Part shown: piece after piece, positions 3,001 through 18,431 of the stretch
How the letters are laid out: each line of letters opens with the position of its first letter
Position numbering within the stretch: position 1 is the first letter of the stretch
Source: an uncultured Spirochaetia bacterium
GTDB lineage: Bacteria; Oederibacteriota; PGYV01; Palsa-1178
Length of the DNA stretch: 64,000 nucleotides
Assembly: GCA_964443355.1 (NCBI GenBank)
Contig: CAYUDX010000014.1
Location: 17,992-81,991, forward strand
Direction of reading: 5' to 3'
Position numbers and translations under genes: made by a program
The notes under the pieces: model-generated
The model's input: the letters and a program-made list of their open reading frames with translations, nothing else
What the model was told of the DNA's origin: nothing
Databases searched by the model: none

Positions 3001-4041
3001 ACTGCAAACCGCATATTCAATAGAACCATAATATCCCGACTTGGTATTTTCCCACCACAACACTATCGGAAGCAATGATGAAATGCCGACATTTGGGAAC
3101 ATGGAATTATAGCTGTCAGTGGATACCTGGACGGGGGCCGCGCTCAATCCCTGGTCAAGGATCCCGTCGTTGCCCAAATGGTCGCCATAACCCCTGATGA
3201 ATATCTTTCTGTTGCCGCTTCCCGTCCCTTCCTCATATACAATAAAAACATCGCCCAACGAATTAACGGCGATCGAAGGATCATAATCCCCGTTGCCGCC
3301 GGTCGGCGCACCCACGGGCATTCCTGTCGTCTCAACCCATGTTGAATGAACACTGTCCCAGCTTGATATAGTAAGATATACGTTGTTGGCGTAAAAACTG
3401 CTCTTGCTTACCATGTAACATTTATTCCCGAGATATGCCATTTTTCTCTGGCTTGCGAAAGCATCGCTCTCGTTTGACCAAGTTGTTAAAATTGACTCAT
3501 TGCCATAATTCGTTGCAAGTATTGATGTGTTGCCCGTAACCCCCGTATTTATATTCGTATATTTCGCAGACAAGGTATATGAGCCTGTCTGAATCGAGCA
3601 AGTCCTATTGTCAACATAAGCAAGAAATGATTGTTTTAAATTGCTTCCGCCGCCGCCGTTGCAGGCTTCATAATTTATCATGGTATCCGTGCCATAGCAC
3701 GGAAAAGAAGTGATATTGGATGAAGCTATGATAGATTGATTGGACAATTCGTTCGGAAAATAAATCGTCATATTTACAGGATTGTCCCATGCGGTCGTAT
3801 CAATATAAGTATTACCGATGAACGGAAAATACGCGACAGGAAACGCTGAACCCGTGTTGTAATTTATATATTCTCCAAATGGATTGGCCTCGGAATATAT
3901 CTTATTAATAACAACGGTTCCCGACGGCAGCGGTGTTGCGTAACAATTCACCGGTGTTGGCGGCGGCGGAAGAATTGGTGTGGCCTGGATGGAAAAAGAT
4001 AGAACCGGCAAAAGCATGGATAACAATAAGATTTTTTTCAT
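1..4041 (-). CDS. Large secreted protein, 3'-partial (>1347 aa, runs off the window): signal peptide, uncharacterised N-terminal region, Thr/Pro stalk, delta-60-type beta-propeller repeats
   Basis: Not in the ORF track because there is no stop in the window. ATG at 4041 gives [22 protein letters not shown]. The frame was open in every segment I spot-checked, including nt 1-60 ([20 protein letters not shown]). It contains motifs such as [18 protein letters not shown] and [18 protein letters not shown], typical of delta-60 repeats. A consensus promoter lies upstream. Confidence 0.8.
1690..2265 (-). repeat. Thr/Pro/Ser-rich low-complexity stalk (TxTP/TxTx periodicity) inside the partial CDS
   Basis: Translates to [37 protein letters not shown]...; produces the Val-rich antisense ORF 1817..2146. 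Confidence 0.85.
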
Positions 4042-4283: not shown

Positions 4284-7200
4284 TTATTGTATAACCACTT
4301 TTTCTATCGATGATTTTCCGACTTCCCCGCCCGTGCTTGTCGCGGTTATCACGAGGTAGTAAACCCCGCGCGCGAGGCCGGCGAAGTAGCTGGCCTGCAT
4401 CGTGGTGGCCACGGGACCTGCGGAATAGGTGTTGGTGTCCTCGAAGTAGCGCACCAGCCTGCCCGCCTTGGTGTATATCTTAACCTCTATCTTGTCTATG
4501 CTCTTGGAGACCCAGATGTATATGGTCCTGTTCGTCGGAACTCCGGGCGTCGGGTTCGGGTTCGGCCCGATGACGTATATCGGCGTCTGTCCCGGCATAG
4601 GCGTCGGCGTCCCAACCTTGAATATTGACATCGTGGGCGTCGGTTCGACGGTTATCGTCTGCGTTATTGTAAATGTCGGCGTTACCGGCACTGTCACTGT
4701 ATCGGTCGGCGTCGCGGTCATTGTCGGAGTCATGGCCCCTATGCTGAAGGGCATCGACGCCGGGCTTATCACGTCGTTCGCCGATACGTTGGTCCCCTGC
4801 GCGGCAGAGCTTATCGTGATCGAACCGCCTTTTGTGACGTTATAGATGTAAACCACGTCTGTTTCGGCGCCTATTGCAAGCGTTGCCGTTACCGCGGGCG
4901 AAGGCCCGGATACCAGCACGAGTGAATTCGACGGGTCTGTGACCGTGTAATTATTCGGCCCGACGTTCGTAAGCGGTGCCGTTCCGTTATTGGTTATCTT
5001 CAGCGTTATCGTCAACTGCTGGCCTTCGACTATTGTCGACGGGGCCGATATCGAGACCGAGAGCGACGGGCTCGTGGAATTCGTCGCAGTTGGCACGGGC
5101 GTGTAGGTATTTGTAGAGGTCAGCGTCGGGGTTATCGTGTATGTCAATGTCGGCGATGCTGTTATTGTCGCGGTATTTGCCTGCTGTGTCGGCGTATTTG
5201 TCGGAGTTCCGGCAGCCGGTGTGTTTGTCGCCACAATTGCGGTTGCCGTCGCCACGACTGGACAGCTCGGGCAGCCGTATATGTATATGTCGTCCACGGA
5301 CAGGTCAACCGCAGCCGGCGCTCCCGTAGCTCCGTTAAAGTTTGTCTGCCACTGTATCTCTTTGGCGTGCTGCAATACTGTCGCCAACGGCACTGCGTCC
5401 GTGGGTGACCACAGGAACTGCGCAAAAGTCGTAAAATCAAATTTATACTGGGTCCAGGCCGCCGTCGGAGTAAAAAGGACATGGTAATCATCGCTGCCCG
5501 TCAGGGTCTTGCCCGTGGTATCGCTTTCATACGGTATCTTTATCAGATACGACTGGTTGTTGCCTTTTGCGTAGAAACTGATTCCCGTGCAGGAACTTAA
5601 ATCGGTTGATGTAAAATTCGGCGAACCGGCCGTTGAATTCAATTGCGAGCCTATTCCAAGGCACGGATAATATCCGGTCGCCGCATCGGTGGCCCCGACC
5701 GTCCCCGTTATCCTCATGGAATATCCCGTTGTTATCGCCCCTCCGGCTGTCGGCGAGCAATAAGCGCCCTGGGCCGGCGCTATCCATGTATCGGTCGGAT
5801 AGGCGGGATCGCCCGATGCATAAGTATACCAGTATCCACCGTAATCATTGCTGTTGTTGCCGTCTTCAACATCGTCAAACAAGCATGTCAATCCCCCGTT
5901 GGGCGTATTAGTCGCCGTAGGTATGCCTGTCGTGGAAGTATATGTAACTGTTGCCGTGGGTATCGTCTGCGTATCCGTATACGTCGATGTCGCGCTCGGT
6001 ATGACTATGGTAAACGTCGAGGTCGGCGAATTCCCCGGAGTGGCCGTATAAGTCGATGTCGGCGAGTTGCCCGGCGTGTTTGTGTCTGTTATGGTCACGG
6101 TATACGTCCTTGTGGAAGTGTAAGAGGACGTCAGCGTAACCGTCGGCGTGTATGTCGGCGTGCGCGTATATGTCTGGGTGTCGGTCGGCGAATCCGTGGG
6201 TGAGCCGGCGTATTCCGTGTTCGTCGGCGTCACGGAGAATGTCGGCGAAACGGTATATGAAGGTGTCGCGGTCGCGGTGTAAGTCGACGTCGATGTGTCC
6301 GTCTTTGTCGCGGTATATGTCGGTGTAAAGGTCGGCGTGGAAGTATCCTTTGCCGTCCCAGTGAAAGTCGCCGTGGCCGTGGGTGTGGCAGTCGAAGTAT
6401 AGGTGTTCGAAGGCAGAGGCGTCCCCGTCGATGTGGCAGTCGGGGTTGCCGTCCTGGTTGAAGTCCCTGTATATGTGGGCGTGTAGGTGCTGCTCGGCAG
6501 AGCAGTGCCTGTGAATGTCGGTGACGGTGTCTTTGTGGGTGTTATTGTGGGGGTAAGCGACGGAGACGGCGTCGATGTCCATACAGTGCACGGGAACATG
6601 GAAACCTGGTCTATCTGTAGCAGAACAGTGCTCCAGGGCTGGCCAATGGTCTGCCAGTGTATGGCGTTAAGGTTGGTAAGAACCGATGCCATTGTCACTG
6701 CGGTGCCTGTCCCGGCCTGTTTAAAACTTGGCGTAGTGCCGGTAAAGAACAGCTGATATTGCGTCCATGTCGTCGGCGCGACAAAACTTGCCGAGTAATG
6801 GTCATTGCCGTCATTTATTGTAGCAGACGGCACAAGCTGGCAACTGTATATATTGCCGTCCCCTTTTGCCCAGAAAGTTATTCCGGTAAAGCCGGAACAA
6901 TTTACCGAACCTGTCGCAACTGACGAAGTGTTTGTCCCCATTCCTATAAAACCATATGTGTAAGCCGTGGTTACCACACCGGTCAACTGCGCGGCATAAG
7001 CCGTTAAATTGGCGCCCGGCGCAGTCACCGACATATATCCTACCGAAGTCCCGGAACTGGCGCTGTCGTTGTAGGAATACCAGCTTCCGCCCCATGAATT
7101 AATTGTCGTATCATTATCAAGATTACCCAGGGCAAGCTGACATGCAAATGTGGGTGTCAGGGTTGGTGTCTGGGTTATCGTTGATGTCAGGGTTGCCGAC

Positions 7201-9080
7201 GGCATAGGCGAAGGTGTCGGCGACCATAGGTATGGATAGAAAGCAACATTATCCAAACTCAAGTTAAATGTTATTTTCGTATTGTCGCCGTTCTGCCACT
7301 GCAATTTTTGCAAATGGGATGTAACCGTTGCTATAGGCACCACGACTGCCCAGCTTGGCTGGGTAAAGTCGGTGGCAAATGATAATTGATAATGTGTCCA
7401 GGTTGCCGGCGGGGTGAATGTGTACTGATAATATCCAGAATCTGATTGTAATGTTGAAGAATTCATTTCATTAAGGGCCACGGAATAAAGCGTTGCGCCG
7501 TCTCCCTTTGCGTCAAATACGATCCCTGTGAAAGGCATCACATTTACGCATCCTGAAACAGCAACGGCATTATATACAAGGTCCGTTCCAATTCCTACCG
7601 AGGGATAATTCGGCGCAACTGCCGCCGCCTTGGTACCAGTAACCTGCAGATACCATGTGGTGGCAGGCGCAGTATATGGAGGCGTGGTGGAAGTGGCGTT
7701 TGATCCGCCTGCTGTCATGGTGACAAAACCGCCCTGGATCGGATATACAGTGGCGCCAAGAGTCGCGGCGTTTGCCCATGTATACCAAAAACCGCCCCAG
7801 TTGTTTTGCGTGTTGTAATAAGGCATAAAATCCTCAAAATCATCCAGAAGCTGCGTTGACGGCGCCGGTGCCGGCGTATATGTCGGGACAGGTGCGCCTA
7901 TTTCCCTGAGGTCCTGAAAGTTTCCCGTCATGAGAAGAAGGGTTAAAAGTTCCAGCGTCCCATTATAATAAGAATCCGTTATCAAAAAACTCCTCGTCCT
8001 GTCATAATATGACTGCAGTTGCGTTGATGTTGTCGTGGAATACATTAAAGAGCATCCGGCAGGTCCGACAAAAGCCGCGTTGTTATATTGGCCCTGCGTC
8101 GAATTATTCGCTATGTAATACCCGTCCACTATGCTTGATGCGGATATTCCGCTGAAAAAAGAGGCGAACAGGCTTGTTTCCGTTGATGAAGGATTTGTAA
8201 CGGCCGCGCCCCACCACAGGTAATCCATTGCGTATCTGAAAGGAACACGGCAGGAATTATATGCATACTCCGTCCCGCTGCAACCGCCACTGCACGGATT
8301 GTCGGTCCTTCTCGACCCGTCGGAATTGCATATCTCGCCCACAAGGCCGCTGGTGGCATTCCTGTTTGTCGCAATGTTGTTGTAGCATTTTGCGATGGCG
8401 GCATTCCATGTGGCGGCATTACCCGCGTCGAACTTAGCGAATTCCCTTAAATACGCCGGGAAATAATATGAAGGATACGACCAGTCATCCCAGTTGTCGC
8501 CGGGTTTGATATGGTAATCGGTGGCGCTTATGTCATAAGAACGTATGCGTCCTATTTCCGTGGTGGCAAGCGTTGCGTAATTATACGTTCCTCCGCTTCC
8601 CCACTGTATGTCCGCCATAAGAAGCGCGAAAGCTATATCAAAATCCGCGTCTGAAGCCGAGTTGCTGTCCACGACCGTTCCGCCGGAACTGATGATCCAT
8701 GGCATGAGGTTTGACGCCTTACCCGCGGCGGTTGTGACGCTGACCTTGTAAGCCCATAAGTTATTAAATAACGTCTGGTCATCAAAATATATTGCGAGCA
8801 ACATTCCATATCCCTGGCCTTCCGATACGGTGCAATTATTCTGGCCATCTATGGTCTGAGGGCTTTGCACACGCTGTCCCACGGACGCCGTGGCCACATA
8901 AGTTGATTTCCATGTGGAATACATTGATTGCAAATCGGATATGCTGAAAGTGGTTATCCGGTTGCCGGCAACATAGTTCATGTTTATCGGGAACGGATAT
9001 TTGGTCGCCGCGAAAATCGCAGAACCTGACAGAATAGTTATCAAAGCGTTTAAACTGATCAGCAATAAAAATTTACGCAT
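4284..9080 (-). CDS. Modular glycoside hydrolase family 8: GH8 + three CBM11/CIA30-like domains + Thr/Pro linkers + Ig-like domain + T9SS/FlgD-like C-terminal sorting domain (1598 aa)
   Basis: Signal peptide; GH8 motifs TVSEGQGYGML and SASDADFDIAFALLMA; three modules starting LLDDFED..WGGFWY, LDNDTTINSWGGSWY and LFDDVEDG..YGGYWY; C-terminus PNPNP..KIYTKAGRLV..LARGVYY..EKVVIQ. Confidence 0.85.
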   Translation of the reverse strand: MRKFLLLISLNALITILSGSAIFAATKYPFPINMNYVAGNRITTFSISDLQSMYSTWKSTYVATASVGQRVQSPQTIDGQNNCTVSEGQGYGMLLAIYFDDQTLFNNLWAYKVSVTTAAGKASNLMPWIISSGGTVVDSNSASDADFDIAFALLMADIQWGSGGTYNYATLATTEIGRIRSYDISATDYHIKPGDNWDDWSYPSYYFPAYLREFAKFDAGNAATWNAAIAKCYNNIATNRNATSGLVGEICNSDGSRRTDNPCSGGCSGTEYAYNSCRVPFRYAMDYLWWGAAVTNPSSTETSLFASFFSGISASSIVDGYYIANNSTQGQYNNAAFVGPAGCSLMYSTTTSTQLQSYYDRTRSFLITDSYYNGTLELLTLLLMTGNFQDLREIGAPVPTYTPAPAPSTQLLDDFEDFMPYYNTQNNWGGFWYTWANAATLGATVYPIQGGFVTMTAGGSNATSTTPPYTAPATTWYLQVTGTKAAAVAPNYPSVGIGTDLVYNAVAVSGCVNVMPFTGIVFDAKGDGATLYSVALNEMNSSTLQSDSGYYQYTFTPPATWTHYQLSFATDFTQPSWAVVVPIATVTSHLQKLQWQNGDNTKITFNLSLDNVAFYPYLWSPTPSPMPSATLTSTITQTPTLTPTFACQLALGNLDNDTTINSWGGSWYSYNDSASSGTSVGYMSVTAPGANLTAYAAQLTGVVTTAYTYGFIGMGTNTSSVATGSVNCSGFTGITFWAKGDGNIYSCQLVPSATINDGNDHYSASFVAPTTWTQYQLFFTGTTPSFKQAGTGTAVTMASVLTNLNAIHWQTIGQPWSTVLLQIDQVSMFPCTVWTSTPSPSLTPTITPTKTPSPTFTGTALPSSTYTPTYTGTSTRTATPTATSTGTPLPSNTYTSTATPTATATFTGTAKDTSTPTFTPTYTATKTDTSTSTYTATATPSYTVSPTFSVTPTNTEYAGSPTDSPTDTQTYTRTPTYTPTVTLTSSYTSTRTYTVTITDTNTPGNSPTSTYTATPGNSPTSTFTIVIPSATSTYTDTQTIPTATVTYTSTTGIPTATNTPNGGLTCLFDDVEDGNNSNDYGGYWYTYASGDPAYPTDTWIAPAQGAYCSPTAGGAITTGYSMRITGTVGATDAATGYYPCLGIGSQLNSTAGSPNFTSTDLSSCTGISFYAKGNNQSYLIKIPYESDTTGKTLTGSDDYHVLFTPTAAWTQYKFDFTTFAQFLWSPTDAVPLATVLQHAKEIQWQTNFNGATGAPAAVDLSVDDIYIYGCPSCPVVATATAIVATNTPAAGTPTNTPTQQANTATITASPTLTYTITPTLTSTNTYTPVPTATNSTSPSLSVSISAPSTIVEGQQLTITLKITNNGTAPLTNVGPNNYTVTDPSNSLVLVSGPSPAVTATLAIGAETDVVYIYNVTKGGSITISSAAQGTNVSANDVISPASMPFSIGAMTPTMTATPTDTVTVPVTPTFTITQTITVEPTPTMSIFKVGTPTPMPGQTPIYVIGPNPNPTPGVPTNRTIYIWVSKSIDKIEVKIYTKAGRLVRYFEDTNTYSAGPVATTMQASYFAGLARGVYYLVITATSTGGEVGKSSIEKVVIQ
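5905..6580 (-). repeat. Thr/Pro-rich linker of the GH8 protein
   Basis: About 225 aa of TPT/TYT/TAT repeats between the second and third CBM-like domains. Confidence 0.85.
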
Positions 9081-17264: not shown

Positions 17265-17320
17265 TGGTCGGGACGACTGGGTTCGAACCAGCGGCCTCTC
17301 GCACCCCAAGCGAGTGCGCT
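17265..17320 (-). pseudogene. Truncated tRNA-Pro(GGG) copy: 3' 56 nt, D-stem 3' side to CCA
   Basis: Identical to 17445-17500; lacks the 5' acceptor strand and D-arm 5' half. Confidence 0.9.
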
Positions 17321-17444
17321 GACGGCGATGTCAATGCCCGGGCGTTTTACTTGCAATAATTGAATCGCCGGCGTCCGTGAAAACTCTAATTTCTTCCTTA
17401 ATTTCATTTTCACGGACTACCAAAAACATAACTTATACATTTTA

Positions 17445-17520
17445 TGGTCGGGACGACTGGGTTCGAACCAGCGGCCTCTCGCACCCCAAGCGAGTGCGCT
17501 ACCAACTGCGCTACGCCCCG
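17445..17520 (-). tRNA. tRNA-Pro(GGG)
   Basis: CGGGGCGTAGCGCAGTTGGTAGCGCACTCGCTTGGGGTGCGAGAGGCCGCTGGTTCGAACCCAGTCGTCCCGACCA; 76 nt cloverleaf, anticodon GGG, encoded CCA. Confidence 0.97.
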
Positions 17521-17671
17521 ACCTATCAATTTAACCTGTCGTCTTACTTCGCATCATGATGTCGGTAGTGTCCGTGGAAATCCTTATATTTTCCTTAATT
17601 TCATTTCCACGGGCTACGCCCCGACCTCATTAATGTATGTTTATTATTCTATGTCGGGGCGTGTCCGGAAA
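17496..17671. repeat. 176-bp direct repeat of 18122-18297 (tRNA 5' end plus upstream region)
   Basis: Offset 626 nt; only 2 mismatches (17635 and 17639). Confidence 0.9.
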
Positions 17672-17866
17672 AGACTTATAAATCTTCCTTAATTTCTTTT
17701 CCGGGCTACGCCCCGATAACGATTTTCCGTCCTTTGTCCTGTTCTAAGTCCTGTTCTAAAGAAAAAAAATGGTCGGGCTGACGGCGATGTCAAAATCCCG
17801 GCCGATTTACTTGCAATAATTAAAAAATCGCCGGCGTCCCGAAAATCTATAGCCCTTAAAATATTA

Positions 17867-17921
17867 TGGTCGGGGCGACTGGATTCGAACCAGCGGCCTC
17901 TTGGTCCCGAACCAAGCGCGC
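17867..17921 (-). pseudogene. Truncated tRNA-Pro(CGG) copy: 3' 55 nt
   Basis: Identical to 18071-18125; the 5' part is replaced by a hairpin unit. Confidence 0.9.
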
Positions 17922-18070
17922 CGCAAACAATGTCAATCCAACCAGTCGTTTTACTTCACATATCAAAATTGCTTGCGTCCGTGAAAATCCTGATATTTTC
18001 ATCTATCTATTTTTCACGGACTACCAACAACCTGGAGCGCGTACGTTTGTCTTTGCTTATCATAAAAAAA

Positions 18071-18146
18071 TGGTCGGGGCGACTGGATTCGAACCAGCGG
18101 CCTCTTGGTCCCGAACCAAGCGCGCTACCAACTGCGCTACGCCCCG
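18071..18146 (-). tRNA. tRNA-Pro(CGG)
   Basis: CGGGGCGTAGCGCAGTTGGTAGCGCGCTTGGTTCGGGACCAAGAGGCCGCTGGTTCGAATCCAGTCGCCCCGACCA; 76 nt, anticodon CGG. Confidence 0.97.
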
Positions 18147-18431
18147 ACCTATCAATTTAACCTGTCGTCTTACTTCGCATCATGATGTCGGTAGTGTCCG
18201 TGGAAATCCTTATATTTTCCTTAATTTCATTTCCACGGGCTACGCCCCGACCTCATTAATTTATATTTATTATTCTATGTCGGGGCGTGTCCGGAAAGAG
18301 TCTAATAGAATTTCCTCTATTTCTCTTTCCGGACTACGCCCACGGCCTTTATACTTTATTTTCTTAAAAACCCGCATTATTTTTAACGGAACAAAATTTT
18401 ACAGGAATACCCGCATATTTTCAAGTCTTTT

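Follow-up and report, generated by a model that had tools for sequence, protein, structure and literature searches.

Within a 64,000-nucleotide stretch of DNA from an uncultured Spirochaetia bacterium (GenBank assembly GCA_964443355.1, contig CAYUDX010000014.1, positions 17,992 to 81,991; hereafter the window, with all coordinates on its + strand and the tRNA genes on the minus strand), an intact tRNA-Pro(GGG) gene is accompanied by a second copy that lacks the 5' acceptor strand and is interrupted at the D-loop by a 96-nt insert with two stems. On balance, the evidence favors this feature being a non-functional chimeric remnant of tRNA-Pro(GGG), produced by illegitimate recombination in a birth-and-death tandem array and kept identical to its neighbor by gene conversion. 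The insert shares 67-73% identity (repeat family D1) with its paralogues, the units found upstream of the intact tRNA genes; the neighboring tRNA-Pro(CGG) gene likewise has an interrupted copy of this design, and the hairpin that begins each insert is confined to this one locus of the window.

The interrupted tRNA-Pro copies and their array

A sequence-only reading of the locus had placed a double-hairpin segment exactly at the D-loop GTAG with CT on both sides, and the sequence agrees. The intact gene reads gtgcg-ct-accaa on the + strand (17494-17505), and the second copy reads gtgcg-ct (17319-20), followed by the insert (17321-17416), then ct (17417-18) and accaa (17419-23). The 56-nt duplication named in the same reading was recovered by blastn as tRNA positions 21-76, the last 56 nt of the intact gene. 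Both stems of the insert, H1 (17374-17416) and H2 (5' strand 17364-17372, GCCGGCGAT; 3' strand 17321-17329, ATCGCCGTC), are present in its minimum free energy fold, and H2 encloses a loop with AAGTAAAACG and TTGACA motifs. ARAGORN and Rfam called tRNAs at the locus only at 17445-17520 and 18071-18146, leaving the fragments uncalled; the Rfam tRNA model matched the two truncated copies over model positions 9/10-63 only, with scores (Table 1) under the cut-off of 29 bits. A functional tRNA would have a full cloverleaf with acceptor stem and an above-threshold score, and because the remnant has no acceptor stem and scores below tRNA thresholds, it is not a tRNA.

The paralogous copy, part of module B, spans 17867-18028; in the tRNA sense the order there is intact CGG gene, 43-nt spacer, GTTGGTAG, 99-nt insert (18020-17922) and 55-nt tRNA 3' part. 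Its insert, X'B, carries H1 at 17978-18020 and an H2 in which 17968-17976 (GCAAGCAAT) pairs with 17923-17931 (ATTGTTTGC). The spacer of module B, CGTACGCGC..CAGGTTGTTGGTAG, resembles tRNA positions 6-22 with small indels (shuffle p ~0.02 outside the D-loop piece), and since this remnant is kept, the CGG copy appears to have started out as an almost complete tRNA with its interruption between G22 and C23. Loss of the 5' acceptor strand, as previously described, thus holds for the GGG copy (module A) and not wholly for the CGG copy, where the decayed remnant persists. A match of 7 nt in the flank would by itself count as weak evidence; the D-loop placement is credible because the paralogous copy exists. 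The two copies differ in their flanking duplication, which is 2 nt in module A and 1 nt in module B, and because module B duplicates a single base only, the CT..CT of module A is no target-site duplication. The suggestion of an insertion scar with a 2-nt duplication is not supported.

Both inserts belong to a 1.1-kb array of recurring blocks, namely pieces of tRNA-Pro (positions 1-10, 16-22, 21/22-76 and the 3' end), H1, and a spacer whose ends are able to pair as H2. From 17361 to 18344, repeat finding and a covariance model located six copies of H1, a 44-nt hairpin, every one of them on the strand of the tRNAs and directly after GTAG. Upstream of both intact tRNAs stand one X and one Y unit, each composed of tRNA positions 1-10 (…GCGTAG), H1, a piece of the acceptor 3' strand and a spacer, and bounded by 11-nt direct repeats of TCGGGGCGTAG. 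In the Y units, the acceptor stem of the tRNA itself caps a hairpin (-34 to -41 kcal/mol), whereas the X units, which are 100% identical to each other, have a decayed 3' strand and a longer spacer with AAGTAAGACGAC...ATTGATAGG. What follows H1 in X and Y units is never the tRNA continuation (CGCAG...), and H1 and H2 are unrelated to each other. The inserts X'A and X'B are colinear with X up to ATTGAC, after which the next 10-12 bases pair with the segment just behind H1 and so form H2. Along about 500 nt, modules A and B share the same order of parts, from Y and X through the tRNA, the spacer and X' to the truncated tRNA and the trailer, and because this colinearity holds throughout, the D-loop junction was made once and then copied. 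A further half unit, Z, has the appearance of an X'-truncated-tRNA that is older and has lost internal sequence; it may be either a deleted pseudogene or a small gene resembling a minihelix. Between the modules (17737-17760) is a 12-nt tandem duplication of gtcctgttctaa, one copy of which is absent in a soil-metagenome contig (run X8).

The array is local. The covariance model R1 found no further H1 copy elsewhere in the 64-kb window, and a pattern scan for GTAG followed by a perfect stem of at least 8 bp gave six sites in 64 kb, all at the locus, where shuffles give 0.65. In three metagenomes in which the organism has a depth of 4-7x, the contigs at least 80% like the insert were the locus's own paralogues only, and the phage and plasmid collections contained nothing of relevant similarity to the locus. 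Pfam scans of 28 window open reading frames (ORFs) returned no integrase or other recombinase, transposase or reverse transcriptase, and no Y1 transposase (RAYT, the transposase associated with repetitive extragenic palindromes) was found among the ORFs scanned. The 3' fragments, as direct repeats, start 180 nt (GGG) and 204 nt (CGG) from the starts of the intact genes, and only 124 (module A) or 150 (module B) non-coding nucleotides lie between the repeats, with no integrase or cargo. Upstream neighbors are der, plsY, gpsA and a MerR-family gene; downstream are genes for a secreted protein, an acylphosphatase and a sigma-70 factor. They form a conserved housekeeping block, syntenic in all relatives. 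The miniature integrative element envisaged in the sequence-only reading is not supported by these results, the insert being paralogous to the host's own units. Its proposed check, a search for empty sites or excised circles, yielded no such joints in contigs, where rare variants are invisible, so that mobility is unproven and not disproven.

Table 1. Features of the tRNA-Pro locus (window coordinates) and of orthologous loci, the latter given by L numbers
Feature	Position	Strand	Evidence or description
Truncated tRNA-Pro(GGG), positions 21-76 including CCA	17265..17320	-	blastn 56/56 to intact gene; Rfam 20.6 bits
Insert X'A, 96 nt (H1 + H2 stem)	17321..17416	-	Repeat family D1; covariance-model match 17361-17427, 64.8 bits
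D-loop piece TTGGTAG, tRNA positions 16-22, directly 5' of H1	17417..17423	-	Sequence
Spacer, 21 nt, intact tRNA-GGG to interrupted copy	17424..17444	-	ATGTATAAG, homologous to module B spacer ATGATAAG
Intact tRNA-Pro(GGG), CCA encoded	17445..17520	-	ARAGORN, Rfam
Unit X_A	17521..17624	-	tRNA positions 0-10 (TCGGGGCGTAG), H1, degenerate acceptor 3' strand, spacer AAGTAAGACGAC...ATTGATAGG
Unit Y_A	17625..17716	-	TCGGGGCGTAG, H1, ACGCCCCGAC; spacer ending ATTAATGAGG; fold -34.5 kcal/mol; 74.3 bits
Unit Z (half unit)	17770..17842	-	TCGGGAC, H2 (X'A stems), AGCCCGACCA, T8 run
Truncated tRNA-Pro(CGG), positions 22-76	17867..17921	-	blastn 55/55 to intact CGG gene; Rfam 25.2 bits
Insert X'B, 99 nt (H1 + H2)	17922..18020	-	Repeat finding, covariance model, colinear alignment
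Spacer with putative decayed tRNA 5' part and T7 run after intact gene	18021..18070	-	Shuffle test
Intact tRNA-Pro(CGG)	18071..18146	-	ARAGORN, Rfam
Unit X_B	18147..18250	-	Repeat finding, covariance model
Unit Y_B	18251..18344	-	Fold -41.1 kcal/mol; covariance model 78.6 bits
Predicted sigma-70-like promoter, TTGAAA-17-TAAAAT	18396..18424	-	Downstream of MerR-family gene; conserved in L008, L081, L091
H1 family loci	17361-18344; L008, L009, L080, L081, L083, L086-L089, L091, L093, L094, L099, L102, L107
L085			No units
L008 / L089			One unit
L091			1+1 units
L086			Two units
L087			2+1 units
L099			Tandem array, 4-5 units
L107			Two units; near-identical L088 has one
Different conserved leader	L009 7060-7135; L080 3240-3315; L092 2725-2795, 3060-3135; L086 ~3510-3560

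Conservation, folding and transcription of the units

Orthologous loci were collected through the neighbor proteins GpsA and MerR, the window's GpsA being 84% and 77% identical to those of two candidate division FCPU426 metagenome-assembled genomes (MAGs), which places the organism with that division. H1 units bearing tRNA-Pro caps are found in about ten lineages, where they lie upstream of tRNA-Pro(CGG), tRNA-Pro(GGG) or both in 0-5 copies; they reach as far as about 69% MerR identity (L099, L102). Their caps follow the acceptor sequence of the neighboring tRNA (CGGGGTG in L083 and L087c, CGGGCTG in L088), the upstream spacer of the tRNA is repeated in each unit as well, and some L099 units are without the TAG of the GTAG tag (GGGGCGT/CCC). 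The difference in unit number between L107 and L088 is typical of tandem-array dynamics. Truncated tRNA copies of at least 25 nt were found by blastn in the window's species only. Unit Z is also present in L081 in three copies (3186-3250 and two more), in which the stems GCCGGCGAT/ATCGCCGTC are 100% conserved and the loop differs; behind its hairpin stands AGC(C/T)CCGACCA, the 3' end of a tRNA complete with CCA, after which the window has T8. Directly after the intact tRNA-CGG of L081 come the trailer and Z, which in the window stand behind the truncated copy, and the arrangement may be regarded as an "empty-site-like" ortholog. Comparison of orthologous loci, recommended with the sequence-only reading, produced an uninterrupted arrangement in a sister species.

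Strong structural constraint was evident in H1. Across 22 distinct units the 14 modeled pairs are 97.1% paired, with changes on both sides in 11 of them, figures that are somewhat inflated as the alignment was fitted to the model; none of 500 shuffles was as good, slid controls reached at most 56% paired, and a separate RNAalifold run gave 10 of the 14 pairs. The stem has 10-11 bp and the loop 20-24 nt, with an apical stem of its own that covaries by eye (ATAGA/TCTAT, AATA/TATT, CTAA/TTAG, ATTAA/TTAAT) and a conserved purine loop containing GGAA. These GGAA loops may bear some resemblance to signal recognition particle RNA or to CsrA sponges. Rfam 15 contained no family near its gathering score other than tRNA (other matches E > 1). 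The inner stems are nearly pure Watson-Crick, and with 9 G.U against 15 C.A cells the strand signal from wobble pairs is ambiguous; H1 may act as RNA or as DNA. The complete chimeras fold with z = -2.4 and -2.5. Their closing helix, UGGU:ACCA, has 4 bp and is not extended in module B; it was considered as a pseudo-acceptor helix and set aside as probably trivial complementarity between D-loop and CCA.

Metatranscriptome contigs (runs X3 and X5) cover the insert and the intact tRNA, 17291-17500, at 1.5-2.5x the depth of the neighboring ORF. The repeats that break the DNA contigs also break these RNA contigs, and the depth ratios would fit a carry-over of DNA. Transcription of the locus is likely, and the predicted promoter at 18424-18396 is the likely promoter of the operon; a promoter scanner found this MerR-proximal promoter only. 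Separate promoters for each unit may exist, as a -10-like (G/A)ATAAT/ATTAAT recurs 7-25 nt upstream of each unit and tRNA, but no consistent -35 or spacing was found. Small ORFs within units were discarded: AAGTAA(G/A)ACGAC(N)GGT shows third-position variation and some L086 frames end GCG-TAG, but starts and lengths are unconserved.

Several other features of these loci were observed. Runs of 7-8 T directly follow CCA-encoding tRNA-Pro genes in the window lineage (18064-18070 and 17761-17768; 7532-7539 and 7763-7770 in L008), and the distant relatives L087 and L092 have a separate AAAATTTTCGC...GCGAAAATTTT hairpin terminator in place of the T runs. A long (GAACA)n microsatellite separates the MerR-proximal promoter from the first unit in L090 and L091 (~2625-2725); it has about 20-25 repeats, the length not being equal in the two contigs, and CAAGA-type repeats lie between the two tRNAs of L091. 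Some relatives carry a different conserved leader, GACGGTTGAGGAGCATA..CCCTGTGCTTG.TTACATCA.CC.TTTGC, upstream of tRNA-Pro genes (Table 1), and in L086 and L087 the tRNAs stand between long inverted repeats (GGTCACCTTTCTCCTCTCT... / ...AGAGAGTAGATAGGAGA). In L009 an NN and a short duplication (7176-7177) inside tRNA-Pro(GGG) of a published MAG contig, probably a scaffolding glitch, cause ARAGORN to miss the gene. Two contigs encode the same MerR protein as the window and differ in arrangement: L002 (3480-4100) joins the upstream units of module B to tRNA-GGG, one module being missing, and L006 (700-908) has a different tRNA-Pro(GGG) 24 nt after tRNA-CGG. They are either strain variants arisen by recombination between 228-nt repeats or assembly chimeras, and were excluded as evidence since chimeras are possible at repeats of 76-228 nt.

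Origin of the chimera and competing explanations

A route to the chimera is suggested by a repeat internal to tRNA-Pro. In tRNA-Pro(GGG), GTAGCGCA occurs at positions 7-14 and again at 19-26, and GTAGCGC occurs twice in tRNA-Pro, at positions 7-13 and 19-25. We infer that the tRNA-Pro gene and its upstream region were duplicated repeatedly, the middle of some copies (Y, X) being replaced by H1 and others losing the 5' end, and that the array changed by tandem duplication, unequal or illegitimate recombination and gene conversion. Because GTAGCGC is present twice and the units start after GTAG, a register-shifted exchange at GTAG(CGC) between a unit and a downstream tRNA copy would place one array period, consisting of H1, the spacer and a remnant of the next 5' strand, behind the D-loop GTAG. 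Such a shift would explain the left junction. It would also explain why AG, G or TAG is left at the right junction, a remnant that had been read as a 2-nt duplication. The junction would have formed once, after which the ~500-nt module was presumably copied beside both tRNA-Pro genes, and the remnant is probably transcribed as the tail of the tRNA-Pro operon. Gene conversion, which would keep each truncated copy identical to its intact neighbor, is proposed because the tRNA parts match their own neighbors at 56/56 and 55/55 positions beside inserts that have diverged, the adjoining insert regions being 11-35% off their closest paralogues; the 100% identity of X_A and X_B argues likewise. The anatomy of the locus, its paralogy and its confinement, the lack of mobility genes among the ORFs scanned and the conservation of H1 are observed; the way in which recombination acted, the conversion and the lack of function are deduced.

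Several points weigh against this origin by recombination and decay. A decaying pseudogene would be unlikely to keep the H1 and H2 stems, and H2 of X'A differs from that of X'B by three compensatory double changes, so that a function may exist for the insert, or for the chimera as a whole. That the tRNA parts are perfectly identical could reflect selection and not conversion. The 10-12 nt before the tRNA part are weakly like TCGGGGCGTAG (8/12 with gaps in module A, ~6/12 in module B); the right end of the insert may be a decayed TCGGGGCGTAG, but with so weak a likeness the register-shift model of the right junction is unproven. The search for copies covered the 64-kb window and metagenome contigs, and that for recombinases 28 window ORFs, so that further copies or a recombinase may lie elsewhere in the genome.

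One rival is a functional structured RNA, in which the H1-H2-truncated-tRNA chimera, or the H1, Y and Z units, would be an expressed tRNA-derived RNA, whether as capped hairpins excised by RNase P and 3' enzymes, as a signal for precursor processing or insulation, or as a protein-binding decoy with a GGAA/AAGGAAG loop. The covariation of H1 and its apical stem, the paired changes in H2, the Z stems conserved in two species despite loop change, the spread of units to distant MerR relatives, the metatranscriptome coverage and the stable folds of the Y units and chimeras all speak for such a role. Nevertheless, we consider it unlikely: the D-loop chimera occurs in one species only and has no acceptor stem, its sole closing helix being the short one described above, the RNA contig breaks and depths may stem from carried-over DNA, the wobble-pair counts would also fit a hairpin acting as DNA, and no Rfam family matches. 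A broader proposal is put forward tentatively, with somewhat less doubt, that in FCPU426 and related candidate lineages the H1 units form a previously undescribed family of structured RNAs derived from tRNA-Pro, acceptor-capped, in 1-5 copies, excised by tRNA machinery and bearing a GGAA loop, of which the chimera and unit Z (ending ...CCCGACCA) would be expressed members. Assembly of a split tRNA in trans from the 5' fragment units and the truncated copy was dismissed, as positions 11-15 are in no piece.

Mobile elements offer two further explanations, neither of which appears probable. Single-strand (HUH/Y1) transposition would make H1+H2 a miniature element inserting 3' of GTAG, derived from IS200/IS605 or resembling a repetitive extragenic palindrome (REP) with its RAYT. 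GTAG-type REPs have GTAG next to a stem-loop with stems of 5-13 bp and loops of 2-20 bp and are often clustered, the GTAG tag by the stem-loop being their hallmark (PMC3733652). The locus shares much with them and with bacterial interspersed mosaic elements: tRNA-Pro has two GTAG sites (positions 7-10 and 19-22), every H1 directly follows GTAG as an imperfect palindrome with a stem in the range given, all copies are clustered on one strand of a single transcription unit with compensatory and nearly pure Watson-Crick stems as would suit a DNA hairpin, there is no consistent target duplication, and X' can be described as a simple insertion between G22 and C23. Yet the copies are bound to one locus where such systems have many dispersed intergenic ones, none being found elsewhere in the window or metagenome contigs, the longer loop carries an apical stem, and the GTAG belongs to the tRNA-derived 11-nt TCGGGGCGTAG, which tracks the neighboring tRNA and is lost in some L099 units. 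A miniature element of IS200/IS605 type would be expected to insert 3' of a fixed tetranucleotide with no target duplication, to have subterminal hairpins at both ends and to occupy several sites; X' would fit a simple insertion after GTAG, with flank duplications that differ (2 nt and 1 nt), but H1 and H2 are unrelated, the junction arose once and no insertion at another site is known. Furthermore, the tRNA never continues after the element in X and Y units, and no Y1 transposase was found among the window ORFs scanned; we regard transposition as improbable. Decidedly improbable as well is a relic of a tRNA-targeting integrative element (resembling a cis-mobilizable element, CIME), with the 56-nt repeats as attL and attR, the island deleted to ~124 nt and the crossover in the D-arm. 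Such elements classically leave an intact tRNA and, as a direct repeat, a displaced fragment of its 3' part (PMC9897764; PMC4383910), and the likeness to attR-type fragments found by the Islander principle extends to the perfect downstream repeat with CCA and the uninterrupted sister ortholog L081; the 11-nt direct repeats around the upstream units recall tandem att sites. However, an island and integrase are missing both between the closely spaced repeats and, for the integrase, among 28 window ORFs scanned, the intervening DNA is a paralogue of the host's tRNA leader units and not foreign, phage and plasmid similarity is absent, flanking synteny is undisturbed in all relatives, and for an attR core the D-loop piece would have to lie on the other side of the insert. 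Crossover in tRNA genes is known at the anticodon loop, at the T loop and at the junction of T arm and acceptor (PMC4383910), whereas identity here starts at tRNA position 21/22 in the D-loop/D-stem, and 5' fragments of 10-11 nt are as common at this locus as 3' ones. An assembly artefact or chimeric contig at the repeated tRNA, finally, is given practically no credence. The locus is repeat-rich, and the ENA contig L002 collapses the modules and L006 diverges after tRNA-CGG, but Logan contigs (unitigs) of three independent DNA runs (17291/2-17469 or 17291-17500) and of three RNA runs cross both insert junctions with 0 mismatches, and Joint Genome Institute (JGI) and ENA contigs from other samples hold the same interrupted structure.

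Known tRNA-derived structures and the meaning of the locus

With recombination in the tandem array retained as the favored origin of the chimera, its units can be set beside other systems. RNase P and the CCA-adding enzyme accept tRNA minihelices, in which an acceptor stem is stacked on a hairpin. The Y hairpins are like such minihelices, and like tRNA-like processing signals of polycistronic transcripts, in having a cognate acceptor cap, discriminator A and then C, and in lying in a tRNA operon downstream of a predicted sigma-70 promoter; unlike minihelices they are much longer than a T-arm and have no T-loop, and the X' chimera has no acceptor cap. The interruption of a tRNA at a non-canonical position by a structured insert recalls the disrupted tRNAs of archaea and algae (intron-containing, split or permuted), but here a bacterium is the host, the acceptor strand on the 5' side has decayed or is missing, and an intact copy lies 125 nt upstream. 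Module A has no positions 1-15, module B has no positions 1-5 and has indels in 6-22, positions 11-15 are nowhere to be found, and no Rfam intron family was detected at the locus. The array is also unlike those of integron attC sites (RYYYAAC / GTTRRRY, IntI), as its units run from ...GCGTAG to GGAC-ACGCCCCGAC with no GTT/AAC cores and no integrase.

In summary, a truncated tRNA copy beside its parent is a familiar kind of object, and here such a remnant was probably generated without an integrative element. For annotation, this would mean that tRNA fragments can arise in the absence of such elements, through recombination at a short internal repeat, GTAGCGC. More notable than the chimera is the family of acceptor-capped hairpins of ~65 nt, locus-bound at the tRNA-Pro genes of an uncultured phylum: H1 shows strong compensatory evolution, is always joined to tRNA-Pro pieces, is conserved at a single locus across a little-known candidate phylum and has no Rfam entry. 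If the units act as DNA, they would be a locus-bound relative of the GTAG-tagged REPs, linking the REP tag to tRNA sequence. If they are processed RNAs, they would be bacterial tRNA-derived "minihelix" genes and provide a handle on tRNA operon maturation in uncultured lineages.

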